Shown here: one piece after another, positions 2,701 through 40,192 of the stretch
Layout: every line of letters starts with the position of its first letter
Position numbering within the stretch: the first letter of the stretch is position 1
NCBI GenBank assembly: GCA_977017645.1
Contig: OZ360249.1
Coordinates: 35,092,001 to 35,156,000 of the forward strand
Direction: 5' to 3'
Length of the DNA: 64,000 bases
Origin: Torpedo marmorata
Taxonomy: Eukaryota
Translations under genes and position numbers: made by a program
The notes under the pieces: model-generated
Seen by the model: only the letters and a program-made list of their open reading frames with translations
Told to the model about the DNA's origin: nothing
The model's database searches: none

Positions 2701-2807
2701 GCACTCACGTTGACACAAGTTAAGATATGAGTAAGAGTGGAAAGAAGGATAGCATGATATGATAAATATATATGAATGAACATTATGCTGTCATCAAACA
2801 TACCATG

Positions 2808-2900
2808 TGAAATAAAAACAGAAAATGCTGTTAGTACTCACCAGATCAGAAACAGAAACAATTCATGTTTCAAGTCTGAAACCCTTCATCAGAACTGACA
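2808..2900 (-). mobile_element. Penelope-like element terminal fragment with minimal hammerhead-like core
   Basis: aaaacagaaaatgctg..tactca.cag.tcag terminus. The reverse complement of 2860-2896 reads AGTT-CTGATGA-AGGGTTTCAGACTT-GAAA-CATG-AATT. Confidence 0.65.
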
Positions 2901-3049
2901 TACAGGCCTGTTGCAAAGTAACAAGCAAGAATGGACAGGAACTTTGATTAAATTTAAGTATTAACCAATCAGCTGAATCGCCCCTCTCCATAGAATCAAA
3001 TGATTCACCTTTTCCAGCTATCTGCAGCACATTGCCAATTACCCCACCT

Positions 3050-3300
3050 ATTAGGTTGATAGTCTGAGATCATGCTTCAGAGGCAAGACCGTGTGTCCAT
3101 GACTAGTGAGGATCTCCCAGTGGCAACCCATTTCAATTCCATGTCCCATTCCCATGCCGACATGTCTGTCCATGGACCCGTTCACTGCCGGACTGTGGCA
3201 CCCGCAAATTGGAGGAACAACACCTCATCTTCCGTCTGGGCACCCTCCAACCAGATGTCATTAACATCGACTTCTCCAGTTTCCATTAGCCCTCCCCATC
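3050..3300 (+). mobile_element. Penelope-like element, GIY-YIG endonuclease C-terminal fragment
   Basis: Translates DLPVATHFNSMSHSHADMSVHG, then after a frameshift RKLEEQHLIFRLGTLQPDVINIDFS, the typical end of a vertebrate Penelope/Neptune ORF. Confidence 0.8.
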
Positions 3301-3834
3301 TCTCACATTACAAAGAGAGTGGAAAAGAATTAGATTGCTCATAAAAATGGTTAATCAGCTTGTCTCCAGAACTTTGAGATGACAATGCAGAAAAGCAAAC
3401 AAATTGCAGATTGGAACATAATTGTCAATATTCATTTCTGATTTACCATTAACAAATTTCCACTTTCATGCAAAAATAGAAAATTATTAATGCTAGCATA
3501 TACAGTACAAAGAGACAGCTATTCCATGGTAGTAGTCATAACATGGTTACAGTCCTAACCGGATTGAATTGACAATGCAGAGCAATGACTAATTTGAAGT
3601 GGTCCAACAAAATTAGTGACATAGAGGCACATTCACTGCAGAAAATTGATACTGAATAATTAGTCGGAACGTGGTAAGGTTGCCAGGGAAAACAAGAAGG
3701 TAAACATAAGCAGAACTGCCAGTATGACTAACCACAACAGCCCTTTCCAATTAGAAATTATCTCCTTATGATTGTATTATGTTTCTCATATTTAATATAT
3801 TGATAGTATTTCCTGTTTAGCACAGATATTGTGA

Positions 3835-4100: not shown

Positions 4101-4783
4101 TATGGCTGAGCAGAGAAAGAATAAAACTGGATATAGATTCCCAATTTGGACATAAGCAGTCACATCAAGCCCAGTTTGCTTTGCAAATCCCTGAGATCTA
4201 AATGAGGAGATGTGTCCCTTGCCCAGTGATGCAAAAGCCTGACATGTTCATGCTTGCAGGGTCTTACCTGATGGTCCATGTGCCGGTCTCCTCTATCAGA
4301 ACCTCTGGACACATTCTGTCACATCCTTAGAAGAGCACTGTTGACCATCAGTAGCAGCAGAAATGTATATCATCACAATGTTTAACCTGATGGCCCAGAA
4401 TTTTACTCACTACAGTATCACTAGCAAGGCAGGGGATCATGAAGAGTATGGAAGGGCAGCAGCAGGCGCACATAAAAATGCTGAGGTCACAGCCCAGTCA
4501 AAGTGCAGTGCAGGACTACATGCATACTCAACAGCAGAGACATTGTGCAATAGGCAAAGTGAAGTGACCTGGCAAGCAGAAATTCACATTAAAGATTGAC
4601 ATGTTTAACTGTGAATGGCGGTGTCCACACAAGGCTCCAAGAACACCCCACGTAACATCTGAGTGCTAAAGCCAATACTGAAGCATTTGTAACTAGATTC
4701 AGTCAGAATTGCTGAATCCATCTTGTCTTCTCTCTGAACTCCTCACCATCAGAATAGACATTCATCAGCCAGTTTAATTTTCT

Positions 4784-5122
4784 CATTCCACCTTAAGCAA
4801 TCCCTATGCCATAAGTGCTCTGTGATTAGTAAGGGATTGCTTAAGGTGGTATGTGAGTGGAAAGAACAAGTTTGAAAACCACTGTTTTAATCGTACCCAA
4901 TTGACTCGTTATGTGCACGGTTTCATAACTCCAAAGGAAATGGGCCAATGACAATTTTTCTCAAGCAAAATATTTCAGTAACAATTGGGTCTAGTGGTTC
5001 TCAACCTTCCCTTCCCACTCACATACCACCTTAAGAAATCCCTTACTAATCACAGAGCACTTATGGCATAGGGATTTCTTAAGGTGGAATGTGAGTTTAG
5101 GGGGGCAGTTTGAAAACCACTG
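4784..5122. mobile_element. Composite hAT-type MITE: two palindromic units in inverted orientation
   Basis: 4784-4883 is the near-perfect reverse complement of 4993-5091. The ends read gaaaaccactg (TIR CAGTGGTT), and the right end is followed by ctctagag, a hAT/Charlie-type target octamer. Same family as 20277-20438. Confidence 0.8.
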
Positions 5123-5292
5123 CTCTAGAGCAAAGGCCTTGACATGGAAAGTAGCCCAGTGGTAGTATTGTGCTCCAGAACTACCAGCTGTATCTCCAAC
5201 CAAGTTATTAAGTAGTTTCAACAGTGGCATTTAAACAACTGTGTTCTTGTTCACAAAAGAAAGCATAGAAAATCCTATTGGCTAATTACCAC

Positions 5293-5646
5293 ATTTTACT
5301 CCATTCTACTGCAATAATCTGTGAAATCTCTTCGTGGGATGCCTACCCTGAAGAAGTTCTGCTCTGCTCACACCTTAATGAAGGGCTCAAGCCCGAACCG
5401 TTGGTTCTATAAAGTACGCAGTTTGACCTGCTGAGTTTCTCCAGCATTGTGTTACTTCAATCACGGTGTCTGCAGACTTTTGTGTTTTACTACATTCTAC
5501 TGCAATAATCTGTGAAATCTCTTCGAGGGATGCCTACCCTGGAGAAGTTCTCCTCCGCTCATACCTTAATGAAGGGCTCAAGCCCGAACCGTTGGTTCTA
5601 TAAAGTATGCAGTTTGACCTGCTGAGTTTCTCCAATATTGTGTTAC
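5293..5646 (+). mobile_element. Tandem 191-nt Penelope-terminus/retrozyme-like insertion with degenerate hammerhead motifs
   Basis: Direct repeat with period 191 (ttttact at 5294 and 5485), about 1.85 copies. Flanked by tggctaatt(a/g)ccac at 5279-5292 and 5647-5660. Each copy contains acc-ttaatga-a-gggc-tcaa-gccc-gaac-cg-tt-ggt. Confidence 0.8.
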
Positions 5647-5660
5647 TGGCTAATTGCCAC

Positions 5661-7220
5661 CAATCATTTGTCTCTGAATCATCAGCAAAACAATGGAGCA
5701 TACGATCAGTGATCAGGCAGCACTTACTCAACTGCAGCTTGCATACCAATGCCCAGTTTGGGTTTGCCAAGGTCACTTGTCTCCAGATCTCATGACAGCC
5801 CCAGTCTAAACCTAGACCAAAGAGCATAATTCCAAAGGTGAGGTGACAATGACTGCTCTTGACATCAGAGAACTTTTGACGAAATGCAACTTATTAGGAG
5901 ACCCAAGTGAAACTGCAGTCAATGGGCATCTGAGAAAAACACTCCAATGGGTGAAGTCATACCTTGAACAAAGGAAGATGAATGTGGTTGTGCCAGTGCC
6001 AGAATATCACTATATGATTCCTCAGGGCAGCATCCTTAAGGCCCACCATATTCCGTTGCTTTATAAATGACCTGCCTGCCATGGTAATATCAGAATTGGG
6101 TTGGTTCGCCGATGATTGCATAATGTTCAATTCCATTCAACTATTCAGCAAATGAAGCAGTCTATGCCTACATGCATGAAGGCCCAGAAAATATTCAGGC
6201 AGGAACAGATAAGTGGTAAATAATACTATTGGCCAAGAGTGGCAAGTAATGACCATAACCAACAACAAAAGAGATGTCTACTCACCTACCCTTGACTTTC
6301 TATGACTTTACCATCACAGAGTCGGGGCGGCACGGTTGGCGTAGCGGTTAGTGCAATGCCTTTACAGTGCCAGCAATCGGGACCAGGGTTTGAATCACGC
6401 GCTGTCTGTAAGGAGTTTGTACGTTCTCCCTGTGTCTGCGTGGGTTTTCCCCGGGGGCTCCGGTTTCCTCCCACCGTTCGAAACGTACCGAGGGCGTAGG
6501 TTAATTGGGTGTAAATTGGGCAGCACGGACTCGTGGGCTGAAATGGCCTGTTACTGTGCTGTATGCCTAAATTTAAAAAAAATTAAAAGAGTCCACCAGC
6601 TCAAACAGCCCATGGGTTACTGTTCATCAGGAACTCACCTAGACTAACCATTTAAGGACCAAAATTATAGGAGCAGGTCAGAGGCTGGGGACCCTGTGGC
6701 AAATGATTCACTTCTTGATACCCAAAATCTTTCCACTCTCTACAAAGTATAAGAGAGGAGTGTAGGGGAAGACTCTCCACCTGCCTGGATGTTTACAGTT
6801 CCAATGACTCTCATAAACTCATCACCGCATGAGACAAACATTTTGACTGGCATTACATGTGTCATCCGAAGCATGCATTTCCTGCATTACTCCCAGCATG
6901 TGCCATCTTCAAAGTGTATAGCAATTTCAGACCAAGGCTACTCCAACAGAACACACCAAATCAGTGATGAAACCCACTTAAATACATCAAGGGCAGCGGC
7001 TGCTTCGGAAAAACAGCACTTGCAGGTAACACATCATTCTGACTTGGAAATATATCATCATCATTGTGTCTAAATCCCAAACTCCTTCTTCAACGGCACT
7101 GTGGAAGCCCTTTGACTAAAGGAACTGCAACAATTCAAGAAGGCAGCTCACCATCACTTTCTGAAGGAATGGGAAATAAATGCTGGCTGTGCCGGTGAAC
7201 GCCCATATCCTGAAAATAAA
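5661..7220 (+). mobile_element. Old CR1/L2-like LINE 3' part, interrupted by a SINE
   Basis: RT remnants (AQFGF, LQWVKSYL..RKM.VVV, PQGSIL, FINDLP, FADDC) with many frameshifts. The 3' tail reads ttcaagaaggcagctcaccatcac...aataaatgctggc...gcccatatcc. Confidence 0.75.
6324..6587 (+). mobile_element. tRNA-derived V-SINE (HE1-like), full length
   Basis: A-box tggcgtagcgg, B-box ggtttgaatc, V-domain ggagtttgtacgttctccctgtgtctgcgtgggtttt, CR1-like tail gggctgaaatggcctg and an A-rich end. TSD agagtc at 6318-6323 and 6588-6593. Confidence 0.9.
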
Positions 7221-8223: not shown

Positions 8224-10195
8224 CAGAATCAGAATCAGAATTTATTGTCATGAACAAGTCATGAAATTCGGTGTTTTGTGGCAGCATCATAGTGTAAACA
8301 TACATATTATAACCATCTTACGACATTACTATAAAAAACAAAATAAATAATAATGCACGAAAAGTAAGGCAGTGTCTTTGGTTCATTGATTATTCAGGAA
8401 TCTGATGGCAGCGGGGAAGAAGCTGTCCTTGTGCCATTGAGTGCTCGTCTTTAGGCTCTTGTACCTTTTTCCTGATGGTAGCAGAGTGAAGAGGGCATGG
8501 CCTGGGTGGTGGGGGTCTTTGAGGATAGAGGCTGCTTTTTTAAGACACCGCCTCATGTAGATGTTCTTGATGGAGTGAAGTTTGGTGCCTGTGATGTCAC
8601 AGGCCGAGTTAACAACCCTCTGGAGTTTACTCTTGTCCTGAGAGTTGAAGCCTCCATACCAGGCAGTGATGCAACCAGCCAGAATGCACTCCACGGTACA
8701 CCTGTAGAAGCTTACGAGAGTCTTTGATGACATACCGAATCTCCTCAGACACCTCACAAAGTATAGCCGCTGGCGAGCCTTCTTTGTGATTGTATCAATG
8801 TGGAAGCTCCAGGACAGATCCTCGGAGATGCTGACATCCAGGAATTTGAAGTTCTTGACCCTCTCCACTACTGAGCCCTCGATGAGGACTGGGTCATGTT
8901 CCCCTGACTTCCTCTTGAAGTCCACAATCATCTCCTTGGTTTTGCTGACGTTGAGCGCAAGTTTGTTGTCGTTACACGATTCAACGAGCTGATCTATCTC
9001 TCTCCTCTATGCTTCCTCATTGCTGTTTGTGATTCTGCCGACAACTGTGGTGTCATCGGCAAACTTGTAGATGGCATTGGAATTGTGCCTGGCCACACAG
9101 TCATGGGTGTATAACGAGTAGAGCAAAGGGCTAAACACGCATCCTTGGGGTGCGCCTGTGTTGATAATCAGTGAGGAGGAGACGTTGTTTCCAATTCGTA
9201 CTGACTGTGATCTTCCGATGAGAAAGTCAAGGATCCAGTTGCAGAGGGGGGTACAGAGGCATAGAGTTTGTAGCTTCTTGACCAACACTGAGGGAATAAT
9301 GGTATTGAAGGCCGAGCTGCAGTCGATGAAGAACAGCCGTATGTATGAATTGCTGTTTTCGAGGTGATCCAGAGCTGAGTGGAGAGCCAGCGATATTGCA
9401 TCTGCTGTGGAGCGATTGTGATGATAGGCAAATTGCAGTGGGTCCAGATCTTTGCTTAGGTACGTGTTAATTCTGGCCATGACCAGCCTCTCAAAGCATT
9501 TCATCACAGTAGAAGTTAGTGCTGCTGGGCGGTAGTCGTTTTGGCAGCTCACACTACTGTTCTTGGGTACCGGGATGATTGATGCCCTTTTGAAGCAGGT
9601 GGGAACCTCTGACTGCCGCAATGAAAGGTTGAAAATGTCCGTGAACACTCCAGCTAGTTGCTTGGCGCAGATTTTCAGTACCCTGCCAGGTACGCCGTCA
9701 GGGCCTGACGCCTTGCGAGGGTTCACCCTCTTGAATGATGTTCTGACATCGCCCTCAAAGACAGATATCACAGGGTCCTCAGCCTTTTCAGGGATTCTAG
9801 TAGGCACTGTTTTGTTCTTCTTCTCAAAGCGGGCATAGAAGGTGTTCAGCTCATCGGGTAGTGAAGCATCACAACCATCTATAGTTCGCCCTCGCTTTGT
9901 AGGCTGTAATGACCTGCACTCCCTGCCATAGCTGGCGTGTATCTGTCTCTGTCTCTAGCTTCCCCCGGAATTGCCACTTTGCTTCACAGATCGTGCCTGG
10001 ACTTCTTGTAAAGATCCTGTCCTCGGCCTTAAACACCCTGGTTCTCGTCCTCAGCAGGTTGCGAATTCTCTGATTCATCCAGGGCTTCTGGTTGGGGAAC
10101 ACCCGGTATTTGCACGTGGGCACACACTCATCCACGCAGGTCTTAATGAAGTCAGTGACACCTGCTGCATATTCATTCAGGTCTATGGATGAGAT
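8224..10195 (-). mobile_element. Rex1/Babar-clade LINE, 5'-truncated and frameshifted
   Basis: ORFs 9007..9807 (RT: [42 protein letters not shown]) and 8383..8931 (KKARQRLYF.R.LRRFG, DPHHPGHALF). NQKPW motif upstream. The 3' tail is (GATTCT)n, read as aatcag repeats at 8221-8240. Confidence 0.9.
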
Positions 10196-10293
10196 ATTTA
10201 AAATGTTGGCAGATTGGCCGCGATACACCAACAGATGTACTGTAATAGAGATATCAAAGGAATACAAATTTTGTTTCAGACTACACAGTAAAT
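10196..10293 (+). repeat. Right copy of ~98-bp direct repeat flanking the Rex1/Babar LINE
   Basis: atttaaaatgttggcagattggccgcgatacacc...acagtaaat duplicates 8125-8223. Confidence 0.92.
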
Positions 10294-10324
10294 GTCCATT
10301 ACCAATCGGTCCTTCAATTCTTTG

Positions 10325-11263
10325 TGTTATGGACCATGCCTGACCATTTGGACTGCCGATGGTCAGCAGGAAGGATGAAGTCTTTTGGAGTACACACTGG
10401 GACCTGGTACTGAAAGAGTTAACTAACCCAGGACTTGCTGTACTCAGAGAGAGAGAGACACCAGAGAGAGACAGGCTGTGGAAAATATACTTTGTTGCAC
10501 TTTTGCAAAAGCAGGTGCAAACCTCTGCAAAAAGCATTCAGATTCAGTTGTTGTTTGGAGTTGCAAAGGCTGTAGAACACAGCAAAATCCAGGCTTGTGC
10601 ATCCCAGGGGAAAAGGCTGGGAGAATAGCACATGGCCTCCTGTATCAGCAAAATCCTGAGTTAAAACAACTTTCGTGAAGAACAGGCGTAAGATCAGCGG
10701 GACAGGCTGTGAGATCCAAGTACACGCCTCAATCCAAAACTGATTTGGAGTCGCAATCCTCGTGTATCTACCAAAAGGGAAAGTCGTCAGAGAAGAAAAG
10801 CAGGCCAAGCATTCGTAAGCTTAAACAGTCATTGTTTCTCTCTCCAACGTTCATTAAGAAGTCCTTCTTGCCAGCACACAGAGCTGAATTTGGACCCTGA
10901 ACATAAAGAGTGAATTTTTGTGGACTGTATTTTTGGGACTGACTTATTTTTATGACTGACCTGAGGGTTTTGGGGAAGGTTTTCCATTTTTACATGAGGG
11001 TTGGGCACAGNNNNNNNNNNNNNNNNNNNNNNNNNNNNNNNNNNNNNNNNNNNNNNNNNNNNNNNNNNNNNNNNNNNNNNNNNNNNNNNNNNNNNNNNNN
11101 NNNNNNNNNNNNNNNNNNNNNNNNNNNNNNNNNNNNNNNNAGATGTTTATAGTGGGGTTAATTGTTGTGAAACTATATGTTTAATTGGCTTTAATAAATA
11201 TAAATTTCAATTTTACCCCTTTTGCATTGCGTCTTCTGTCGTTGCTGGTTTGAGTTTGTAACA
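10325..11263 (+). mobile_element. Possible solo LTR (spans a gap)
   Basis: Begins tgttat and ends gtaaca (TG...CA with short inverted ends). AATAAA lies about 70 nt from the end, and the stretch is non-coding with composition unlike its flanks. No clean TSD. Confidence 0.35.
11011..11140. other. Assembly gap (others at 16354-16480, 34975-35147, 42158-42285, 48938-49078, 52909-53076, 62048-62197)
   Basis: Runs of N, 127-173 nt each. Confidence 1.
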
Positions 11264-11591
11264 AATGTTACTCATTTTTAAACTGGCATCAAAATTCTAC
11301 TGGAATTTAGTGCATAAATGATTAGATGATCTAATTTCCAAGCAATCCTAAGATTTAAAAATATATATATATTTCTGCTTTCTAATGAGTTTTATTTTTC
11401 TGTTTGTTTGTTTTTCAAATTTCCTTACAATTATGGCAATGAATTGAACATGCTTTATTAGGCCACATATTCAAATAAGATTGGTGTATTACTTGTGAAA
11501 ATAACAGCCATACAAGATGACCATGAATCCCATTTGATCTATTTTAATTAATCTATCCAGAACAATGTTGTGCTACTCCAGTATTACATTT

Positions 11592-12085
11592 GAAATTCAC
11601 AAAGGTGCTGGATTAACACAGCAGGTCACGCAGCATCTATAGGAGGTAAAGAGTAACCAACATTTTGGGCCTGAGTCCTTTGTTAAGGTATGAGCAAAAA
11701 GCAGGCAGGCACCTGAATTAAAAGGTTGGAGGAGAGCGAGAGGAGAGGAGGGAGGAAGGGGCAGGGGGAGGAGTAGATGCTAACAGATAAGAGATCATAG
11801 GTGAATATAGGTTGGAGTGTAGAAGAGAAAAAAGTATAGAAGTGATAGTGGGAGGGGGGACTGAGTGGAGAGGGAAGGGAAGGAGTTGGAGAGCTGAAGG
11901 AAAGTAGACAGAAGGATAGGGAAAGAGAGAGACTCAGTGAAGGGGTTTAACGTAAGTTGGAGAGGTTTATGTTAATTCCATCTTGTTGGGGGGTGCCCCA
12001 TTGGAATATTAGGTGTTGCTCCTCCAAGTTGCAGGCAGCTTTGGTGTGGCAGTGCACGAGGCCATGGTGTGGGAATGGTGTAATA
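11592..12085 (-). mobile_element. Penelope-like element 3' fragment with 17-bp TSD
   Basis: The minus strand encodes HGLVHCHTKAACNLEEQHLIFQWGTPQQDGINI, then a CT-rich tract and a decayed hammerhead-like terminus. actccagtattacattt occurs at 11575-11591 and 12086-12102. Confidence 0.85.
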
Positions 12086-12454
12086 ACTCCAGTATTACAT
12101 TTATCTGAGTATTAAGTAACTCCAGCACACTTCCATTCAAAGTGTTTATTGGGTCAAGGAAAACCTGCTCTAAGCTTTACTTCAGCTTAATTTACTGTTT
12201 GTACCTTATTGCCACAGTTTAATGTCAAGGGGCATTCTAAGTTCACCTTTTCTCACCATTGACCTCTCAGATGCTTACATCAGCATACAGATGTCTCTTC
12301 AGCAGGCCAGAAATCCCTGTGTTCTCCAGTCTTTCCTCATAACGTTGAATCTTGTTTGTGCAAGTTAATCTCCAGTGATGTACAGTATTTCTATTGCCAT
12401 TGTTTGACTGCTGATTTGCAATTGTTTCAATATTGAGCTTTGACACCATTCCAC

Positions 12455-13791
12455 TCCACCTCGAGGTGAATGACAGGATAGGTCCAAGCCAGCATGGTTT
12501 CATGAAGGGAAGATCCTGCCTGACCAACCTATTGGAATTTTTTGAGGTAATCTCAGGTAGAATGGACAAGGGAGAGGCTGTGGTGTTGTGTATTTGGATT
12601 TTCAAAAGGCCTTTGATAAAGTGCCGCATAAGAGGCTGCGTAATAAGATGAGAGCCCATGGAATTACAGGAAAGATATTAGATTGGGTGGAGCATTGGCT
12701 GATAGGCAGGAGGCAAAGGGTGGGAATAAAGTGATCCTGTTCTGGTTGGTTGCCGGTTACTAGTGGTGTTCCGCAAGGGTCGGTGTTGGGGCCGCTTCTT
12801 TTTCCTATATATATTGATGATGTAGATTACGGATTGAATGGTTTTGTGGCTAAGTTTGCAGATGACACCAAGATAGGTGGTGGAGAAAGAAGTGTTGAAG
12901 AAACCGAAAGGTTGCAGAGAGACTTGGACAGCTTAGGAGAGTGGGCAAAGAAATGGCAGATGAGATACAATGTTGAGAAATGCACAGTTGTACATTTTGA
13001 AAGAGGAAATAAACAGGCAGATTATTATTTGGATGGGGAGAAAATTCAAAATTCGGAAGTGCAAAGGGACTTGGGGGTCCTCGTGCAGGATAACCTAAAG
13101 TTTAACCACCAGGTTGAATCGGCAGTAAACAAAGTGAATGCTATGTTGGCATTCATTTCAAGAAGAATAGTGTATAAGAGTAAAGAGGTGTTGATGAGGC
13201 TCTATGGGGCACTGGTGAGACCTCATTTGGAGTACTTTGTGTGCAGTTTTGGGCCCCTTATCTTAGAAGGGATGTAATAATGTTGGAGAGAGTACAGAGA
13301 AGATTTACCAGGATGATTCCTGGAATGCAAGGTCTAACATATGAGGAACATTTAGCGGCTCTTGGACTGTATTCATTGGAGTATAGAAGAATGAGAGGGG
13401 ATCTCATAGAAACATTTTGAATACTGAAAGGATTGGACAGAGTAGATGGAAATAAGATGTTTCCCTTGGTGGGTGAATCCAGGACAAGAGGGCACAGTCT
13501 TAGAATTAGAAGGTACCCATTTAGAACAGAGATGAGGAGGAATTTCTTTAGCCAGAGGTTCGTGGATTTGTGGAATTCGTTGCCACATACAGCTGTGAAG
13601 GCCTGATCATTGGGGGATTTTAAGTGGGAAATTGATAGGTATCTGATTGGTCAGGGTATCAAGGGATATGGGGAAAAGGCCGGAAAAAGAAATTAGATGT
13701 GAGAACAGTTTAGCTCAGGGTGGAGTTGCAGAGCAGACTCATTGGGCCGAATGGCCTACTTCTGTTCCTTTCTCTTGTGATCTTGTGATCT
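12455..13791 (+). mobile_element. CR1-clade LINE (HER1-like), 5'-truncated, relatively young
   Basis: SQHGFMKGRSCLTNLLEFFE, SGVPQGSVLGPLLF, KFADDTK, LVRPHLEY, with few frameshifts. The 3' end is gggccgaatggcctacttctg...tcttgtgatcttgtgatct. Confidence 0.93.
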
Positions 13792-20204: not shown

Positions 20205-20540
20205 ATAAGGAGTTTGTACATTCTCCCCATGTCTGCGTGGGTTTCCTCCAGATTCCATAGATGTAAAGGGTTAGTACAGTGGTTCTCAAACTTTTTCTTC
20301 CCACTCACATACCACCTTAAGTAATCCCTTACTAACCACAGAGCACCTATAGCATACGATGCCATAGGTGCTCTGTGGTTAGTAAGGGATTACTTGAGGT
20401 GGTATGTGAGTGGGGAAAAAAAAGGTTAAGAACCACAGGGTTAGTAGATTATTTGGTCACATGGGTGTATTTGGCATCAGGGGCTTGTGGGCCAGAAGGA
20501 ACATACACTAGAGTGTGCTGTATCTCTAAATTAAATTAAA
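20205..20540 (+). mobile_element. V-SINE fragment (5'-truncated), interrupted by a MITE
   Basis: taaggagtttgtacattctccccatgtctgcgtgggtttcctcc matches the SINE at 6324. The tail is gtgggccagaagg...gtgctgtatctctaaattaaattaaa. Confidence 0.8.
20277..20438. mobile_element. Complete 162-bp palindromic hAT MITE with 8-bp TSD
   Basis: Ends cagtggttctcaa ... ttaagaaccacag. Almost the whole element is one hairpin. TSD ggttagta at 20269-20276 and 20439-20446. Confidence 0.92.
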
Positions 20541-22529
20541 TGTTAAAAGTTATGACAGATGTCAAAGGTCCAACAACCACCCTGTCCCCTCTCAACCATT
20601 CAGCATTGCCCTTTAACAAGCCTTGCCATGAATATTCTGGACTAACTAAGACAAAATCCAGATTTTGTGAGGTGCGCTGGGCCAGTGATGTTGGTCCACT
20701 ACATGCAACCCAGGTGCACGTCAACGTGCAAGGACTGCCAGCAGTTATTTTAGGCAGCTGGTCTGCACTGGAGTGAGTTTCCCCTGATTTCTGGAGCCAT
20801 GAATCCACAATATAGAGTCAAAGTTTGGTTTTATTGGTCCTTTGTTTCCTATTTTATGCGGTCAGTTTCTGGTTACCATAGAAAGTAGAAAAAGGAAAGG
20901 CTCTAGTGAATTCATGCCAGTGTGCATGATTCAGAAGACTACAGAAAAGCATATTCTCTATTTCAGCACATTGTCATGAATGTCATTGCTGGTGACATTG
21001 AGTCCTGAGTTGGAAAAGTGTTCCAAGCGCTAATACTTTGTGACCCATGAACTCAAAATTACTTGGCAATGTTTCTGAACATTTACAAAGGATTTCTTTC
21101 TGAATTGTTGCCCATCTTGAATGTGATGGCCATTACAGTAGTCTGATGGACAGTATAAATTTCTAAGAATCTGAAACAGGAAAGGGAACTGGGACTGAGG
21201 TCAAAGTAGACACAAAAAACAATATGTCTGGAACATGTCTTATGATGATTCCAAGATGTATAAAGAGTACAAAAAAGATGAATGGCACCAAAGTCCATAT
21301 GTTAAACAAACTGGAGGATAAGGAGAAGCCCAAGAAACATACACTAGAGCATCTGGTAAAATGAAGAAACAGATCCAGCTGGATTGAAGTCAATGTTGAA
21401 CACTTAAAATGTGGTTTGTGTTTAAAACGCCAAGCATTTTCTTTGATATTTTACTGCTTCTTTCCCCAATAATGATGGCATCTATTTACATTTCAAAATA
21501 TGCCAAGATAGATACAAGAATGTATTGAATATCTTATTTTGTATTCACTGAGGATTTAAACTGATTTTCAGTGAACTATGAAAAGAGATATAAACTGGCT
21601 CAAACTATTTTCTCATGAAACTACCACTGTACTTTACATAATTTTTCAAGGCAAATCATTTTTGTTCATTTATATTGAACAACCAATTCAAATTGGTTTC
21701 TAAGTAGCTTTTGAAATATTGAATATACCCTTTGCATGAGAGATCTCTGTCGAAGAAAGGTGTGCTTAAGCTATCATTTTAATTGCTGATTACAGCAAGA
21801 ACAAGGATGTTCTTTCAATAAAATATCAACTGATATCTTTTCACTTAGCTTTGTTCCTGATGGGATTTCAGCAGAACTGCTCTTGAAGATTCGTCTGATT
21901 ACAGATGGCCTTATCTTTTCTGAGTGTAGAGAGCTGCAAACCATAGGACATGCAACTTAAATCAAAATGTTAGAAAAATATGATTAGTGGTGATGTGGAA
22001 TCAATCTTGTTTTTTTCTTATGTTTATGGTCTCATGTTCCATTATACCGTCCAAATCTTGATTGTGCATATGTGCATTTTGGTGTAAAAATATATAAATA
22101 TACTTTCAATTGATTTCAATGGGAAATGTTACTTCTGCCGTTAATTTAAATCTTTGCTCTTGGGTTTAAGTCATAAGTAAATATGTTAATCTGTATTTTG
22201 TTCTAACATCATCTACACACAGTTAGGAAAGATTGTTATTTGAACTTGAAGCATTGCCCATTTGTAACAAAATATCAGCTGTTCTTAAAACTTATTTCCT
22301 GCACTATTACAGATTGCAATCACAATCATGCAATTTTACATACAATTATTTCAGAGGTTATTACATCATTTAATGTTTGACTATGAATGAAATACTTCCT
22401 ACTTTGCTGCATGCTAATTGTGAACTAACTTGTTATTTCACCCACAAATACACATAGAAAATTCCACTGGAAATTGCTCATAGATTTTGCAGATGTGTGC
22501 ATTAAAATATGGTCAGGAAAGCATTTTGT

Positions 22530-23563
22530 AACTCTTATTAGGAAAGGAAATATTAAGAAATTTACTTCTATAGTGTATTCTTTGCTACAAAGGGGAGCTT
22601 TAAAACGAGGACTTCATAAATCTAGACAAAGATGGGAACAAGATCCTAATGTTATAATTGATGAAAAAAGATGGTCGGATTTATGTTTAGATAGTATGAC
22701 TAATACTGTTAATGTAAGATATAGATTGGTACAATATAACTTTTTACATCAATTATATCTTACACCACAAAAATTGAATAAGATAAACTCTATGATATCA
22801 AATAGATGTTTTAGATGTGGTGAAGAAGAGGGAACCTTTTTACACTCAACGTGGTCATGTCCAAAAGTTAAAGGTTTTTGGATAGAGTTAGGAAATCGGT
22901 TAAAACAAATTACAGGTGTTACATTTCCACAGAATCCTGACTTATTTTTATTGGGAAACGTGGAAGGAACTAGACCAAAATTGAAGTTATCTACATGGCA
23001 ATTGAAATTTGTAAAAATTGCATTAGCAGTAGCAAGGAAATGTATAGCAGTAACTTGGAAATCGGATACAAATTTAAGTATGGATAGATGGAACTCAGAG
23101 ATGCGGAGTTGTATTCCATTGGAAAGAATAACATATAATATGAGGAATAAATATGGGGTATTTTTGCAAATTTGGCGTCCATTCATCCAATTATTAGGAA
23201 TGAATATTTAAATGTGTTGCCCTACATCCTAGACCCTGCTGACTCTCTTAAATTTAAACTTAAAGAATGAATATTGTTGAATGTCTCGCACCGAGCCGTG
23301 GACCCGTACGGATGTTTTTCGATAAATGTCAATGTCTTCTCCTCTTTCCTCTTTTTTTCTTTCCTTATTTTTAGTAAGGGGAGGGAGTAAGGGATGGGAA
23401 GGGTGGAGGGTGGGTTGTTTTAGTGAGGGTGGGTTAAGATGGGGTTAGAATCACGGTAATACGAATTTTGTTTGTATTGAACTCATTAATGTCTATCATA
23501 TATTTTGTACTATTTTGTATTATTGTGAAAAATTTGAAAATTTAAAATAAAATATTAAAAAAA
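22530..23563 (+). mobile_element. L1/Tx1-clade LINE 3' end with poly(A) and 15-bp TSD
   Basis: Uninterrupted ORF2 C-terminus to 23211 with the CCHC knuckle RCFRCGEEEGTFLHSTWSCP, then a G-rich 3' UTR, AATAAA and an A tail. aggaaagcattttgt occurs at 22515-22529 and 23564-23578. Confidence 0.92.
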
Positions 23564-27800: not shown

Positions 27801-30418
27801 AGAAGTTGCATGAGAGATCGTCGTAAACAAGAGGAGAGCAAATTTACAGAGTTGTCCGGGGATACACGTAAGACCCTTACCAATACATGAAGAGGAAACG
27901 CTGTAGAAACCTGGCGTTTCCCCAATAATTAAAGTGGACAGTGACAAATTGGTTTACATCGGTAACACAAATCGTGTCTGCACTTGTTTAGGAGCAACTA
28001 GGAAAGTTTTTTAAAAATGGTTTGCAGGAATTTCTATAAGTTTAATATGTTGAGTCCAACAGTGCGTGTGTATGTAATCACTAGATTTATTAAATTCCAT
28101 TTCTTGCCTTTTCTGAAACTATACTCACTATATCCATCATTTTGTTAACAAACATTCACCTTTTTGCCGCAAATCATCTTTCTGACAATCCCGGTTGACA
28201 CCACTTGTTTATTGTTCGTTTCTTGTTGTCTTTATGTATCGATCAAGTATCTCTTGCTGCCTTTCAACATCATTTATGGTGTAACGTAAATGAGTTCAAA
28301 GCGCGCCGTGAATTTGTTCGGATTAATGTATGCGTTCGGTATGGTCTTGAATTAAGAAAATCACACGTGTTACCAATTGTTTGTTTTTGTGCTGGGGAGA
28401 AGAATTTTTTATCGGATTCTTCAGACAACGCACAATAAATCTGGTAGACCGGTTGGGATGCTGAGGAGAGAAAGATCTTTTTGTCAATTCAGTTGCTACA
28501 AACATAATGAATATGAAACTTAATAATTTTAACTATATGAGATATTAAAAGAGCGCATGCACAATAAGCTATTGCCAAAATTCCAATTGCGAGATCAGCG
28601 TTCAGTTTAAAAAGTAACAGTTAATCCTATATTTTTCTGGCATCTTCGCAACACACGCTACCTCAAAGAAGTTTATCACGAAAAACCAATACTGATTCTC
28701 GACCGTGTATCCAGTCAAACATCAATCAGATTCTAACAACATTCTCGTTTACTCTAAATCTTTCCGCCCAGCCTTCAAACTCGATCAGACTATTTTTTTA
28801 GCGTGTTCATTAGCCTGATTAATCTTTGTTATATTTTGGGTCCGTATGGGTTAATCGGGGCATCAGCGTGAGTCCCGGGGTCATAGGTGCTCATCCTAGT
28901 CTTGGCGCAGGACTTCTGCAAGAAGGTGAGGGAAAACGCATTTTCTCTCACACACAAACGCACACACCATCATCCTCTCCACCTGCAGCTCGCAGTTTGT
29001 CTCCAGGGAGTGCAAAACAGGAGATGACACTCTGCAAATCGCTAATTAGACTTTCCCAGATACCTCGGGATGCAGTTTGCCTTTTCGTTTCTGTACAGCT
29101 TTACGGCTAAATATAGATGGAATCTCAATTTATTTAACATTTTATCTAGTTTTGCTTCAGCATTTTTAAACGTTTCTGTTTATCTCAATGTTGTAATACA
29201 TACGATTTAACCGTGGGATGCATTGGAATGTACACATATCCTTTATTCATGTATGGGGTATGTACCCTGTTTGTGCGTCCATCCTTTTCGCTTTATAACA
29301 TCACTTAAGACAAATGCAGTTGATGTTCAACTCCCTGCATCTTCCACAGATGTTTCACCTCTCGCGACCGCTTCAATTCTCTTTACCTAATTTTATAGAA
29401 CAGTCTTATTTCTACCCTTGCTCTTGCACTTACCCCCACCGTCAGAAATCGCTTTCCAATCAATGTCTATTGATTTCAGCGCCTCTTTTTATCCTGTTAT
29501 CCCCACATCTGAAACATGCCTTTAAAACCTCTCTTTACACACAACGATTTACCCCTTTGCTCCGTTCTCACCAGCGAAAAACAATCGATATGCCCGTGTT
29601 ATTTGTGTGTGATCAGTAAATATTTAGTGTGGTGACATCTTCAGCTTCTCTCCCAATCGATACAAAACCCAATAGGCGGCGTGTTGTAATCTGTAGACAA
29701 CTACTGTCTGCTGTTCTCTATGCTGTCCCCTTTATGCCTTTTTCTTTCTTTCTGGTCCTCTGTTAAGATCAATTTCTTCTCGCCTCAACCTCTGAATCAC
29801 GCGAGTAACCCTTTAGTGCGACATGATACATAATCAACTGGGTAGCTTGTTATCATCATCTTTCCATTCATATATCTGTGTGAATCTTATTAAAACTGCG
29901 CTGCACATTGCTAGTTATTAGGCTTATCCAGTGCCTTTTGGTGCTGTTCCGAATTTTAGTGGTGCCATGCACGCGAATAAATAAACGGTGTCATGTTTAT
30001 TTCTAGCAATCCAGAACTATTAAACCCGTCTTTCTAATTTCACTATTGGCAGGAATAATAACGTTCGCACATTTGTCATTATTCTGACTTTTGAAAATGA
30101 ACTCAGAAACTACAGATACATTTTTTTAATCCACTGCAGTGCTGTTAGTATTTTTTCATTGTCAAACAGCCCTGTGCCTATATCCTTGGCAACGAAGTCA
30201 CAATATTATGTTCTTACACGTTGCGCACACTTCTCTAGAATTAAGCACTGTTAACATTTTTTGTAAAAAAGTATTCACTCAATATATTTAACATGGTTGT
30301 GACTAAAATAAATCATTTATAAATAAAACGAACTGTACATTGGTGTTTAAAATGTTTCACTTATTAATCGGCCTTATCACAATACAGCCACAGTTTATTT
30401 TAAGATTATCGGTGCTGA

Positions 30419-30429
30419 ATATATATATA

Positions 30430-30467
<38 letters not shown>

Positions 30468-30491
30468 TAGATAGATAGATAGATATAGATA
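30419..30491. repeat. (TA)n/(GATA)n microsatellite
   Basis: Read directly from the sequence. Confidence 0.95.
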
Positions 30492-32011
30492 CTAATAAAA
30501 CAGAGTTAGATGTACAGGCGTTAAACACCTTGAAAATAAGCAGTGTTCACACCATCAATAATTAAAAGATAGTGTAATTATATTAGCGATAAGATTTATG
30601 GCCAAATGCACGAAAGGTCGTTCTCCTTGGTTTGACATTTTACTTGTGATTTTCTTCTTTTTAACATAAATATTTAGCTTGAAAAAGACCGTACTGTCGT
30701 ATACGCTATAGGTATATAGTGTCCAGTGGAAAGGCCTGTATGTGTTGTTTAGGTTCTGATATCTATTGTGCCATTGGAAGTGGCTATATGGAAAAGTGAT
30801 GGAGCGGCTAATACTGGCAAGATTTGGAAGTGCACACGTACTTAATGGTTTAATTGCAGCAGATTCCAACCCGAGAATCCGGAGGGTGAGCAGTATTTAG
30901 CTGCAATCAGGCCAGAAATGTAGCACAAGATTTTTCTCTTGAAAGAGCGCCTATGTGTCCATTGAAGAGCGCTGATCCGAAAAGACAGAGGGGACAAATA
31001 AAAATCGATCTGAAGCGACCCTGGCCGTCCTTTTCACACGATTCACACACAATCCCCTCTCAACTCTACCAAGACAAAGGCCTGGGACCGGAGGGATTCT
31101 CCACAAGCTACAGATACCCTTTTGGAAAACGCGTAGATAATTATATACTGGGCATAAACCACACTGTATAACACCAGATCATCTCAAACCTCAAAGAAAT
31201 ATTTGCTCTTCTGCAAAGCATTCATGGAAGTGGAGACAGGCATTTAGCATTGGGGCAATGGGCGGCTTTTGCATTATAAGTCTGAAACAACTTTATAGAA
31301 GAAACAGAACACAAATAAATTAACTTCGACATTAAGTTCTCCGAATCCCAGCAACCACACAATCGGCTACTATTGGCGAGGGGTAGAGGGTAATATGATA
31401 TATTCCCTCCTCTCCTTGCTAGACTACTCTAGTCGCAGTGTACTTCTGGTTTGCAACTGATGCATGCATTCTGCACTGTTGTCTGTACTTTTGGCCTCCA
31501 TTGCCTTCATCCCGTCCCTCCCCCGAAAAATCCATATATTGGAAACTTTTCTAATAGCGTAGAACTGACCAGAGCAAAGGAGCGAAATTGCGCAGGACAA
31601 GGGGTACTAATCGCTCGGGGGGGTTTAAAAGGCGCGGATCGCATTCCTCTGCACTTTCCCCAATTCGGCGCTATCGAAAGGCCCATAAAGTTAACCGTAA
31701 GATTGGACAAAAGTTAAATTGCAAATCGAAAGTACTTCCCTGGTTTCTGAATATTTATATGAGCCTCTCGCTCTCGCCAAAGGCTACCTTTTTTTTTTAA
31801 TCAGTTTACACTATCGGTCGAGCAAACAGATGACGGTCGATGAAATGAATGATTCTCTTCAATAGGCAAATAGATCAGGTGAGGAGGAGACGAGCCCTCC
31901 CTTCAGTTCACCTGCCAGAAAAAAAGAGATTCATCTCACTCAGTAGTTTCCAACTCGGTTCCGCCAAGATTCTCAACTTCCTGTGTCCAGAGGAGATTCC
32001 AACCCGTCACG

Positions 32012-32063
32012 ATGCAAATAATTTCGGACACTGAACAAAGACAATTGCAAGCAATGATGTTTG
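32012..32063 (+). CDS. NR2F2: Candidate alternative first coding exon of NR2F2 (DBD-less isoform)
   Basis: acgATG start (A at -3), encodes MQIISDTEQRQLQAMMF plus G, then donor G|GTATGT at 32064. The phase-1 end fits exon 2. Resembles the recalled human isoform-b N-terminus MQAVWDLEQGKYGF. Confidence 0.65.
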
Positions 32064-33207
32064 GTATGTTTTTAATAAATATATATGTTTCTACTTTTGT
32101 TTACTTAATCGAGGGAAATACGCTTTTCTTGATCAAAACATGATCGTTCTTAAACACCTGTATTAATTAATCTATATTATGTTGACACGAAGCAGGTTTT
32201 GAATTTCAACACATGCTGTACTTTGTAGCCAATTGAATATCCGTCAAAACAATTAAAGTTTTTGCTTTAATTATTTCTAGATTTAATGGGGAAAAATCAC
32301 TAAATCAAGCTCGGGTTCTCGTTCTGATGAATTTGATAATCTACTCCCCGGTTCTTATGTTCCGCATAGTTATGTACGTGTTTCCAAATGTAATAGCGAT
32401 CGGAAATTGAATCGAACCGTGAATGGGTTACAGTGTCGCACGATGGTGTAATATTAGGGACTATGTAATAGAAACATCAGAAATAAACATGTTTGCCGAC
32501 CTCTAAATAAAGCTAAGGGTCCCAGAAACCTTTCTCAAGCGGTTGCCCGTCGAGTCCGCAGAAATCCACAGCCCCTGTCCCGTGTTTCAATGAATTAGAT
32601 TTGTTTATTCATTCATTGCTAAATTGCTGTGTAATACTGCTTTGATTTACAACGCTGTATATCGCCGGCGAGCTCATTAAAAAAAAAACTTGTGCATTAA
32701 AATAAGAAAACAGTTTGAATCGCCGCAAATGAGCGAGTAAACGCTGCTACAATCAACAGATTTAATTTGAACTGTGTATTAGAAATTGGTACTCACCACT
32801 TTTATTTAGATCCAGAAACGCATCTGATGATTTTTTTTTGTGGGAAAATAAATGTTTATTTATTTGAGGGGCGAAGCAGCGGGTTCGATTTGGCAATACT
32901 GCTTCAGATGAATCGTTTTAGAGAGGGGAAAGTCTATTAGCAATCGGTTGTTTTTGAAATAAGACCAATTCCAGGCACCTAAGCCAACCCATACGTCCAG
33001 GCAGATCTAGAAAAAAAAACAAAGCGACGGAGATCACGCAGTCCCGCTCAGCAACGTCCAAGTCAATTAGAGAAAAATCCTAAAGAATTAATCACATTAA
33101 AGGTGCAGAAGTTTTTTTTCGGGGTATAAAGGACGCGTTGTGAGCGAGGAGGCGCCGCGATCCCTTTGAATGGCTTTGCTGCTCCAGAGTTCTACAGCGA
33201 CACTCCA

Positions 33208-33224
33208 TACGCTAGGTGGCAGCC
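33208..33224 (+). promoter_or_regulatory. Candidate CTCF site
   Basis: acgctaggtggcagc is close to the CCASYAGRKGGCRS consensus. Confidence 0.5.
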
Positions 33225-35981
33225 AGATACTGTACAAGATTTTGACAAATTCTCCAGCATATGCTGCGATTTAGCACTGTAAATTTTTCAGAAGCCCGCT
33301 GCACTGACAGCTCCCGGCGGTTATCAAAGTGCCACAAGTCACCGCTTAAAAACTGCAATGACTTTGAGATCACCGGGACACAATGGGAACCACTTTCCCT
33401 ATTCATTGTGTTGAAATGTCGTGAGAGAGAAAAAAAAAACAGGGCGAATTCACAGGGAACTCAAATTCAATAGATCTAGCTGGTTATCAGTGTACAACTG
33501 GGAAGCAAGTGGCATCTAGTTTGTGTTATAAATAACCATGCCACGGTTAGCATACAACACAATATTAATTTAACAAATCCTATACACCGCCATCCTTGGA
33601 AATGATTTAAACTCCGACTGAATGGTTTCTGATTGTCGCTCTCGTTGGTTCGGAGTAGCTCAAACTTACTTTTGAAATTATCACAAAGTATTACCTTGCT
33701 GTCATTAAAAATAAACAACGATTCAATTTTGCTCCACAAACCATGTTTCAAAATGTTGCCTTCATTTCTTAAAAGGGCCTTTGGCAACGCCACCCTTGGC
33801 TAGTTAACAGTGATATTATTGACACGTTTAATTACGAACAAAAGATATTCATTTCATATTTCTCCAAACTCTAGTTTCTCGACTTATCTCCTCAAAATTA
33901 TTTATTTTTGCATAACTAATTTAAACTGTTCAATTTAAAACCCCGTGCACTTTTTTTTTTGCAACGTGCAACATATATTGCTTTAGATGCTAGACTGGAG
34001 GTTGTGTCCTTTCTTTGCTGAACCATGTGAGCGATTGCATTGTGAAATGGACATTGCAAGGAAAATAAGTTGATTTACCTACAAGTAAACACATCATGTG
34101 TTAGAGATTTTAATCATTTCCTTTAATTGTAAGGACTCCACTGAGGAACTGTACCTATATACAATGTGCATTCGAATAGAATTCTGTAGTAAGGTCAGTA
34201 TAGAGAGAAAACATTATATTATCAAAGTAACGGTATTTAAGGTACTACCCATTGGACTTTAAAGGAACACCTGTTTAATGCACTCTACCCAGGGTCATGT
34301 ATTATATACTTGAACGGGTGTAATTTCGTATTTTATATATAAATTGCGTAACAATGCAATCATCGATAAGCGTGAGAATTTCTGAATATTCCCGGTAACG
34401 CATTCTATGAATTTTGAAAACATGTATAATGTGTGCATGATACATCTAAAAAAATGCTTTAAAGTACATATATATTAAAGTATATACTTCTTTGGTTAAA
34501 AACGTGAAATGCGCAGTTACAATTCATCTGGAGCGGACTTCTAACAGCACGCAGCTTCCCACAATCATACATTTTCTCCATACACTCATTCAATTCCATG
34601 TACTGATTTAGTATACTGGAAGAATTTGGCTAAGTATTAATTGCTGCAATTAAATATAACACATAATGCGGCCAGACTCGCCAAAAGAATTCAATTTACG
34701 TGAGTCTTTATATTTCTCATGACAAAATTTGTCAAATCTGCTCTGTTGAAACGTCAATTTCCCAGTTAATTTTAGTAGTACTGCCAACAGAGTAACCCAT
34801 CCAGCCCAGAGTGACCACTGAATATAACGTGGCATAAATAAAATATCGCCCACCCGAAGTAAATACACGATACATTGAAATATTTTATTATGGAAGGACA
34901 AGGGAGAAAGTGGTATCGCAGCAACCCCACTCCAAAAAATCGTCAGTACACAGTTTTGAGGATTTTTATGCAATNNNNNNNNNNNNNNNNNNNNNNNNNN
35001 NNNNNNNNNNNNNNNNNNNNNNNNNNNNNNNNNNNNNNNNNNNNNNNNNNNNNNNNNNNNNNNNNNNNNNNNNNNNNNNNNNNNNNNNNNNNNNNNNNNN
35101 NNNNNNNNNNNNNNNNNNNNNNNNNNNNNNNNNNNNNNNNNNNNNNNTATCTAGATAACCAGTTACACGCGCAGTACAAAACTCTTTTCACATTTTAGTA
35201 TTTCAAAGTAAACACATTATTTATCTGAATTAATAATGGTTCATCAGATGAATGAGACCCTTTCGAATATTCATAGCTTTTCTAAGACAAGATACCCTGT
35301 GGAACGCACAGAAACTATTATTCTCCATAAACTTGCAATAGCTGATTTTTGACATCACTTTACCTCATTGTATTTGGACGTTTTCATGAAAATTCATCAT
35401 AACCCTCGCTACCGTTAGGATGTCCCAATGAAATAAAATAGCATCGCCCGCCAGTGGTACATCTTCAGCATCAACTTCTGTCCTTGATAAAACTGAAGCG
35501 ATTTAAAAAAAAGATGGTATTGATTGTTCAGGAAAACACTTCTCATAGAACCTATGAAATTTATATACACATTATTAGGCATATTGTAAACTCAGAAGTA
35601 GTTTCTTTAATAATGTCAAATATATTCTTCATATATCAAATTTATTTTTCCACAAGACACGCCTGTATAAATAATTTTAATTAGGACTATTCAATATTTA
35701 TTGTTGCATGAGCTTGCCGAGTCTTTTATTGCATATCCTTTGTGAGATTATTTCATATTATCTATATATTAATTTTATCTATATACGGCTCATTTGTGAT
35801 AGTTGCATTTATAAAATCTACTATTCCCCAATGCTACCCATCCTTCCAGATTTTAATGAAAATTGGAGGTGGTGATGGTGGGGGGATAAAAAACTTATTT
35901 TTCGAAGTGGACCTTTGCGCATGGATTTAATGTAAATTTGTTGCCGGCCAGGATGTTCTAGATAATAAGTAAGGTGCCTAT

Positions 35982-36170
35982 CCAATGCGGTGCAGGGGGC
36001 GGGCCAGATGTCCCAGCCCCTCGAACCTAAAGCTCTGACCAGTCGCCTTTGATTGTCAGTCGCCAGCAGCCGCCGCTTGGCTCCGTCACTCGGCAGCGCC
36101 ATATAAGGAAAGCATCTCCATAGAAACGTGTCAGTTTCAATAGTCGTGTCAAAGTTCACTATATACAGCC
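35982..36170 (+). promoter_or_regulatory. NR2F2: NR2F2 proximal promoter
   Basis: CCAAT 35982-35986, GC box ggggcggg 35996-36003, CArG CCATATAAGG 36099-36108, DR1 GTGTCA-A-AGTTCA 36146-36158 and TATATA 36160-36165. The DR1-next-to-TATA layout is known from mammalian COUP-TF promoters. Confidence 0.85.
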
Positions 36171-36189
36171 ATCCGCGCAGATTTCCCCT

Positions 36190-36638: not shown

Positions 36639-36678
<40 letters not shown>

Positions 36679-37467: not shown

Positions 37468-37508
37468 GCGTGTATGTGTGTGTGAGATAGAGAGAGAAAG
37501 AAAGTGTT

Positions 37509-37542
<34 letters not shown>

Positions 37543-37975: not shown

Positions 37976-38587
<612 letters not shown>

Positions 38588-39811: not shown

Positions 39812-40192
<381 letters not shown>

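Follow-up and report, generated by a model that had tools for sequence, protein, structure and literature searches.

A hammerhead-bearing partial tandem insertion in Torpedo marmorata, very likely built from an ORF-deleted unit of a Penelope-like element

The window, which is the whole stretch of 64,000 nt of Torpedo marmorata DNA analysed here, contains on its plus strand (36823-40192) a three-exon nuclear receptor gene with a zf-C4 and a ligand-binding domain, which we take to be COUP-TF/NR2F2-like; the insert described below lies ~31 kb upstream of it. Broken remnants of LINE reverse transcriptases (RT) of several types, with RVT_1 and zf-RVT matches, were found at 8383-10537 (minus), 12621-13277 (plus) and 22429-23211 (plus). 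A SINE-like repeat with a tRNA-like head, recognized by eye, is present at 6325-6560 and 20206-20244; the repeat is presumably of the elasmobranch HE1 type, and ARAGORN found no tRNA in it. Positions 4781-5122 hold a nested palindromic repeat with 84-nt inverted arms, each with a 25-27-bp hairpin, and a second copy lies at 20276-20436. This repeat, which gave only sub-threshold matches to miRNA models, looks like a non-autonomous hairpin/DNA transposon. The window also carries 1,018 N.

The insert occupies 5293-5646, a total of 354 nt or 1.85 copies of a 191-nt unit (Tandem Repeats Finder: period 191, 1.9 copies, 94%), with one type I hammerhead layout per unit, as in the short tandem units (about 150-450 bp) of non-LTR retrozymes. 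When letters i and i+191 are compared over the 163 nt of 5294-5456, nine mismatches are found (5301, 5335, 5351, 5361, 5365, 5371, 5417, 5444 and 5445), or ten if 5293 is counted. The target-site duplication (TSD) of 14 bp exceeds the 4 bp expected as a minimum for non-LTR retrozymes, and a match of its grade, with ±5 nt of slack, was obtained in 1 of 20,000 random placements within the window. The period of 191, the approximately nine differences and the 14-bp TSD of the original prediction are all borne out by these values. Its description of the unit as non-coding holds in that no intact ORF is present, the coding capacity of the insert being a 9-codon ORF remnant as in elements without protein-coding function such as retrozymes; it does not hold for the origin of the unit, which is partly coding (the start codon and nine codons of a Penelope-like element, PLE). 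For comparison with related sequences, contigs, and contigs only, of four of 23 runs (X1, X2, X4 and X11) were aligned at an 80% threshold, and 32 of 116,354 pieces, 15 of 259 joints and 39 of 159 variant rows were listed; X11 is an RNA run by guess, the other three are non-RNA runs. No contig spanning the entire dimer was found among the 32 of 116,354 pieces listed, and the two-unit state rests on this assembly and on one candidate middle piece in organism C. The features of the insert and of a nearby PLE relic are collected in Table 1.

Table 1. Features of the insert and of the PLE relic at 11.6 kb (window positions)
Feature	Position	Strand	Evidence or remark
Left TSD, 14 bp	5279-5292	+	13 of 14 bp identical to 5647-5660; chance 1/20,000
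Last 8 nt of PLE tail, 5' end of insert	5293-5300	+	Same register as 5484-5491; period-191 match; organism B has the unit-2 letter at 5293
PLE 5' leader (tail to start codon), unit 1	5301-5338	+	Family contigs collinear from the tail (aligned to unit 2)
PLE start codon and first 9 codons, unit 1	5339-5365	+	Match to P0038, score 27; joint at 5365/5366
PLE 3' UTR end and minimal type I hammerhead 1	5366-5406	+	Motif scan, alignment to relic, family letters
Hammerhead 1, parts	stem I 5372-5374/5403-5405; core 5375-5381; bulge 5382; stem II 5383-5394	+	Predicted cut after 5402
Hammerhead 1, core changes	5377 (G5A); 5398 (A15.1C)	+	Compared with family letters
Terminal-repeat body, unit 1	5407-5456	+	~19 nt shorter than family majority just after the hammerhead; loose-end rows 5408/5409 and 5597; ends in short motif 5447-5456
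Optional PLE tail, 35 nt	5457-5491	+	Ends in long motif 5480-5491; present once in full; 233-1498 contigs per run depart at 5491
5' leader and first 9 codons, unit 2	5492-5556	+	ATG at 5530; joint at 5556/5557; relic homology from 5557
3' UTR end and minimal hammerhead 2	5557-5597	+	Stem I 5563-5565/5594-5596; core 5566-5572; predicted cut after 5593
Hammerhead 2, core changes		+	G5A and A15.1C as in hammerhead 1, compared with family letters
Terminal-repeat body, unit 2	5598-5646	+	Ends on short motif (5638-5647); 3' end of insert, putative RT start
Right TSD	5647-5660	+	Pairs with 5279-5292
5'-truncated PLE relic, outside the insert	11575-12102	-	GIY-YIG C-terminal remnant, 3' UTR, hammerhead-like motif at 11686

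Both units have a 3-bp stem I, a 7-nt core, one bulged A, a 4-bp stem II and GAAC, so that minimal type I hammerhead layouts are indeed found at 5372-5405 and 5563-5596 as had been predicted. Positions within the motif (5, 15.1 and so on) are given in what we take to be the usual hammerhead numbering. The layout shows the features of PLE-type minimal hammerheads, with the bulge between A9 and 10.1 and the G10.1-C11.1 pair, and the family majority letter at 5398/5589 restores the palindromic 15.1-16.1. A relaxed scan, whose pattern was composed after the motifs had been seen, gave three motifs in the window (5375, 5566 and, on the minus strand, 11686) against 0.02 per shuffled window in 50 shuffles. 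Rfam gave no match for the window at the gathering threshold, and its 18 matches for 4500-6500 up to E 10 included no hammerhead. In predicted folds, the isolated motif favours an alternative hairpin (-11.6 kcal/mol versus -9.6 kcal/mol for the hammerhead), and the circular fold of the monomer, taken from this decayed copy, reaches -46.3 kcal/mol (z -2.1 versus shuffles) with 54% of bases paired.

The minus-strand motif belongs to the PLE relic of Table 1, whose body (12085-11592) lies within a perfect 17-bp TSD (12086-12102 and 11575-11591). The 3' part of this relic aligns to the 191-nt unit with a local score of 72, the best of 500 shuffles reaching 32, and its coding remnant has 56% identity over 34 residues to P0005. 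This protein is one of six matches of a representative search, among which P0001 and P0002 were discarded as unrelated repeats and P0003, P0004 and P0006 are chimeric gene models. The nearest Atlas clusters of P0005 carry GIY-YIG, and it has 29 longer relatives, including models from Rhincodon, Stegostoma and Leucoraja, which supports the cartilaginous-fish setting that had been proposed for the family; none of the 29 is a full-length PLE protein (the longest has 522 aa), and P0012 has matches to both RT and GIY-YIG. Using the relic itself as query, a protein search with a 53-aa fragment and Pfam with a 45-aa fragment gave no matches, and the Atlas search gave leads under 0.9 only. P0012 and P0014 have, by eye, a Cys-rich linker before the endonuclease, which is described as a mark of Neptune and Nematis (PMC8557442); judged from this linker in the two relatives, the parent PLE was probably of the Neptune type. 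The public gene models P0003, P0004, P0037 and P0014 are chimeric, joining host genes to PLE fragments, and the P0014 model reads through into a hammerhead-bearing terminal repeat. The hammerhead-like core of the relic has U3, A5 and A8, for which a U3-A8 pair or CpG decay could account. Additionally, a third PLE relic at 2795-3310 combines an inverted terminal repeat with an adjacent plus-strand fragment of a GIY-YIG C-terminus that carries a frameshift; a hammerhead-like motif with a consensus core was seen by eye at ~2892-2864 (minus) and failed the relaxed scan, and no TSD was found around this relic.

The 191-nt unit is, in all likelihood, an ORF-deleted PLE unit. It includes, in this order, the terminal repeat with the hammerhead, the 35-nt tail, the 5' leader and the first nine PLE codons, after which the hammerhead follows again. 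The start codon at 5339/5530 was noted before the protein comparison. The N-terminus of the PLE protein was reached from P0023, which has an RT match, to P0038 (70% identity over 54 residues), and the N-terminus of P0038 has the same 9-residue pattern, with the best of six frames exactly on the ATG of the unit and a score of 27, which was reached by 2 of 2000 shuffles and by 0 of 320 window tiles. The match comprises nine residues and one predicted protein, which counts against the reading favoured below; short-word blastp of the insert against P0003-P0035, a set without P0038, gave noise only. On the other side, the homology to the 3' UTR of the 11.6-kb relic begins exactly at 5557, and the deletion joint lies at 5365/5366 and 5556/5557. 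The terminal repeat is homologous to the 3' end of a PLE with RT and GIY-YIG, as in a PLE-derived non-autonomous element, and this homology together with the ORF-start match supports the Penelope origin that had been suspected. No intact RT and GIY-YIG coding region between terminal repeats, as in an autonomous PLE, was found at the insert locus.

The terminal repeat is present in 29,422-40,653 aligned contigs per non-RNA run. Among the 32 of 116,354 pieces listed are family contigs that extend from the hammerhead through the tail and leader to the ATG, and at least nine records (2, 15, 16, 18, 23, 26, 28, 29 and 30) depart at 5537-5560 into at least 31 other letters, presumably the PLE ORF. 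At least two of the listed contigs cross the joint: record 7 reaches 41 nt into the hammerhead side and record 6 reaches 28 nt, which is under the 31-nt bar. Both are about 83-85% identical to the window, despite the 99% identity of the flank of organism A, and therefore represent other loci; the joined form is thus a minority subfamily and no one-off, and there is probably a small family of joined units, as had been anticipated. The joined copy of record 7 (X1) apparently keeps the family-type spacer. Pattern scans of viral contigs gave five loci, each with only an 18-26-nt chance match, and in another scan none; scans of metagenome contigs gave 0 and 0 loci.

Compared with the family majority, both units have A at the position equivalent to 5377 and C at that equivalent to 5398 (G5A and A15.1C). 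Expressed as depth, which is a sum over contigs and not a copy number, G at 5377 makes up 98, 98 and 95% in X1, X2 and X4, A at 5398 makes up 99, 99, 96 and 85% in X1, X2, X4 and X11, and A at 5589 makes up 97, 98, 96 and 71% in the same runs. The core changes common to both copies (G5 to A and GAAA to GAAC), on which the original prediction had remarked, are accordingly real relative to the family majority. The majority also has ~19 more bases after the cut site and then, by eye, six pairs in stem I, and a third lesion shared by the two units is the loss of these ~19 nt with a shortened stem I. Including 5407, 5418, 5420, 5506 and 5508, both units carry at least seven substitutions versus the majority among the 39 of 159 variant rows listed. 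The relic also has the U at position 3, for which the variant rows listed show no entry. With G5A, A15.1C and a 3-bp stem I in both units, the complete hammerhead of a non-LTR retrozyme was not found, and by comparison with studied mutants both hammerheads here are very probably inactive. Since the lesions are present in both units, the simplest account places them in the template, which probably could not self-cleave; a template with dead hammerheads would therefore not have cut itself into a circle. At 5335, 5361 and 5542, among the variant rows listed, one unit each departs from the family letter, as is expected of decay after copying. The A5 is also found in the relic at 11.6 kb and in about half of the X11 depth, and may be a tolerated or subfamily variant, the family majority then being a different subfamily; in one study, natural PLE hammerhead core variants reportedly cleave as dimers. 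In X11, the presumed RNA run of organism C, G at 5377 makes up 47% of depth against 95% in the DNA run of that organism, which could reflect transcription of an A5 subfamily or a single contig of high depth. Hammerheads with U3 are known from the PLE literature (PMC4209133), and published mutants are described in which G5A abolished the cleavage of an engineered hammerhead (PMC4027429) and changes at 15.1/16.1 caused an at least tenfold loss (PMC3088659).

One end motif occurs at 5447-5456, 5480-5491 and 5638-5647. Loose contig ends accumulate behind 5491 (809, 901, 1498 and 233 per run), sharply and with random flanks, and behind 5453 (474, 500, 968 and 235 per run), where they are blurred and partly produced by the alignment, the T-run of the family being longer; joints of 5453 to 5491 on opposite strands were found in 10, 7 and 14 contigs of three runs. 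The insert ends 3' on the short motif, as does the relic at 11.6 kb (11592), and begins 5' at 8 nt inside the long motif, the 0.15 unit absent from it being the tail; neither end coincides with the cut predicted for the ribozymes (after 5402 or 5593). The locus and its family thus have an optional tail with two 3' end points 35 nt apart, an insertion ending on one of them, and partial-tandem or inverted forms (the insert and the opposite-strand joints). Similar properties have been described for PLEs, including an optional 30-40-bp tail between two internal RT start sites in an anole PLE (PMC11167929), a 34-37-bp repeat in Drosophila Penelope (PMC2377424), partial tandems as an ordinary insertion form (PMC8557442, PMC2377424), and inverted arrangements together with the optional tail and two RT start sites (PMC11167929, PMC8557442, PMC2377424). 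Read from the sequence, the ends of the insert appear to be the PLE tail boundaries of the family and not permuted points; of the proposal that the unit starts and stops at differing points, the 1.85 units remain, but both ends lie on these boundaries and are not arbitrary.

The insertion is present at the orthologous site in organisms B and C, and because they share it at a divergence of 7.3-9.3% it is old. In a contig of organism B (record 17), 5125-5447 is joined to 5647-5894, which leaves one unit and a site 199 nt shorter; the first piece has 23 gap letters, and because all of them are explained by two flank indels, the unit of organism B shares the joint and the short spacer. The contigs of organism C break inside the element, where a gap-free contig over 5372-5534 has 23 differences in 163 nt and a depth of 10.4 (adjoining flank contigs, 12.5 and 11.1); with its single-copy depth, this piece perhaps represents the central part of the same dimer, or it could be a paralogue. 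Organism A has zero contig cover over 5166-5281 and carries no weight either way, and no empty pre-insertion site was found among the 32 of 116,354 pieces listed. The divergence between the two units (9/163 = 5.5%, 95% CI 2.9-10.2%) is nominally below the flank divergence to B and C, the intervals overlapping; nominally, this speaks for late doubling or conversion. The history is shorter with an ancestral dimer and a single subsequent loss in organism B than with plain duplication, because the latter cannot give 354 periodic bases and a site in B without the middle 28 nt; alternatively, the one-unit state of B is a contig collapse instead of a loss. Either way, the site has a labile number of units, and any conclusion drawn from 1.85 units about an RNA template is weakened accordingly.

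On balance, we favour an old partial-tandem insertion of a non-autonomous mini-PLE, made from a linear RNA or by a template jump. As the homology shows, an autonomous PLE, probably Neptune-type, was stripped of almost its entire ORF and 3' UTR, which brought codon 9 up against the hammerhead and left a 191-nt head-to-tail unit in which terminal repeat, tail and leader persist. G5A, A15.1C and a stem I without its outer half would then have arisen in a master copy, after which a PLE RT/GIY-YIG protein acting in trans would have nicked the target, with RT starting at the short internal start site of the family. Two units would have been copied, the template being either one linear transcript of tandem units or two RNAs of one master, with a jump from one to the other over the 8-nt end motif; copying would have stopped at the tail boundary, and repair would have left the 14-bp TSD. 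The copies would since have decayed neutrally to nine differences, at least one relative lineage now having one unit, a step seen in part. We infer the mobilization in trans by a PLE RT/endonuclease from the TSD and the end position only. The hammerheads were probably not needed for the making of this copy, and in an in vitro system of the anole PLE, hammerhead mutants are described as having no effect on insertion (PMC11167929). The single unit of organism B counts against this reading, which needs the later 199-nt loss or the contig collapse, as does the unit divergence, since copies identical at birth and older than the splits from B and C should be at least as diverged as those lineages.

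In the retrozyme explanation, dimer transcripts self-cleave, the monomers circularize, and a PLE RT goes 1.85 times round the circle. A circle template has been proposed for PLEs (PMC4209133), and the layout, with tandem units, a type I hammerhead and a long TSD, is like that of non-LTR retrozymes, whose units measure 150-450 bp (PMC7229834); the family majority retains G5, GAAAC and a longer stem I, the joined copy of record 7 has an apparently family-type spacer, and the predicted circular fold is somewhat stabler than shuffles. We nevertheless consider this origin unlikely for the insert. The shared lesions would have to be later than the insertion and spread by conversion between the units, or be tolerated, whereas at least seven substitutions and the ~19-nt gap in both units, two of the changes being at catalytic positions, are most simply explained by a template with dead ribozymes. 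The 5' end lies inside the 12-nt long-end motif, where a random stop on a 191-nt circle would fall in ~6% of cases, and the circular fold pairs only 54% of its bases. Published evidence points the same way, with 8 of 9 predicted Xenopus retrozyme dimers showing no cleavage in vitro (10.64898/2026.07.22.740005) and no anole reads ending at the hammerhead cut, as far as that account describes them (PMC11167929). The argument of the original prediction, that a longer-than-unit insert with one TSD indicates RT round a circle, therefore loses its force, partial tandems being ordinary in PLEs; nor is a circular template borne out by ends that lie on tail boundaries with none at the cut site, by the shared lesions and by the one unit in B. 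The insert does not by itself show the copying of a circular RNA.

Equally doubtful is that a single mini-PLE unit inserted and decayed and was then doubled or homogenized at the DNA level, by unequal crossover over the end motif, in which case the two-unit state would say nothing about the RNA template. The one unit of organism B, the many changes versus the family majority common to both units and the nominally low unit divergence all fit such a doubling, and local amplification has been proposed as a route (10.64898/2026.07.22.740005). However, a plain local tandem duplication was rejected, the periodic stretch of 354 nt being less than two units (382 nt), and the absence of the 28-nt middle piece in B would require a duplication and two independent tail losses; the gap-free contig of organism C, if not a paralogue, also resembles the middle of a dimer. 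Far less probable is a plain 5'-truncated autonomous PLE with nothing but its terminal repeats, or a chimera produced by the assembly from two copies of the repeat. The extreme abundance of the terminal repeat, the N in the window and the lack of a dimer-spanning contig among the pieces listed would agree with it, but in a truncated PLE the leader and ATG are followed by the ORF, and here the hammerhead follows, at two joints; in addition, the orthologous contig of organism B reads across the joint, as do other copies in organism A, and both units lie inside a single TSD pair.

The insert is real, old and intergenic, and very probably inactive. As a tentative and rather unlikely extension, intact members of a shark/ray mini-PLE subfamily would self-cleave and circularize, a PLE RT then copying them for more than one round from its normal internal start; if so, the locus would be a fossil of the birth of a retrozyme from a PLE by one internal deletion, with a joint readable at base level, and of a later ribozyme-independent spread. 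The unit offers one concrete route from PLE to retrozyme, an internal deletion from codon 9 to the hammerhead, where the PLE origin of animal retrozymes has been argued in print from co-occurrence and terminal-repeat trees. If the dimer moved with dead ribozymes, it would be the genomic counterpart of the in vitro PLE insertion without hammerhead cleavage. Its use is in the curation of shark and ray repeats, as one decayed intergenic copy with no hint of host function.

We file the insert as a non-autonomous PLE derivative that is retrozyme-like in its layout and in its PLE dependence. Among the ribozyme-bearing elements that it resembles are the R2 SIDE elements, whose ribozyme class is HDV-like. 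As described, these also arose by internal deletion and keep a ribozyme-bearing end and an RT recognition end, but they belong to the R2 clade, are rDNA-specific and are non-tandem (PMC3414825). The idea of a circle template (PMC4209133, PMC7229834) and non-autonomous head-to-tail PLE derivatives (PMC8557442) have both been published, as have tandem hammerhead repeats in one chondrichthyan genome, with a mean consensus of 363 bp and derived from PLE terminal repeats (10.64898/2026.07.22.740005); the supplements of that work may include the present family. A literature search, with Repbase and Dfam outside its scope, found no published description of the 191-nt unit or of its joint.

Like minimal-hammerhead PLEs with pseudo-LTRs, the unit has a bulged base before stem II and G10.1-C11.1 (PMC4209133), and it shares with PLEs the 35-nt optional tail, the two 3' end points, the partial-tandem or inverted forms and the long TSDs; unlike the PLEs described there, it has no RT or GIY-YIG coding region and cannot move alone (PMC4209133). 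Similarly to MRC1 and the non-autonomous Chlamys derivatives, it is non-autonomous and akin to the ends of autonomous PLEs, forming pseudo-LTRs often in head-to-tail multicopy; those belong to another clade and kingdom and are described without canonical hammerheads, whereas this unit has 191 nt, bears a ribozyme and is found in a cartilaginous fish (PMC8557442). As in non-LTR retrozymes (PMC7229834, 10.64898/2026.07.22.740005), the short units are arranged head to tail, each with a single type I hammerhead and without an intact ORF; the GC content is under 50%, the TSD is long and PLEs co-occur. In contrast to the canonical hammerhead of the coral, mussel and axolotl retrozymes in those accounts, the unit has the minimal PLE form, with both cores mutated, and the insert is described here from DNA, whereas retrozymes accumulate as monomeric circular RNA. 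Finally, unlike retrozymes described as bare terminal-repeat amplifications, the unit still contains the leader and initial codons of the PLE, as left by an internal deletion.
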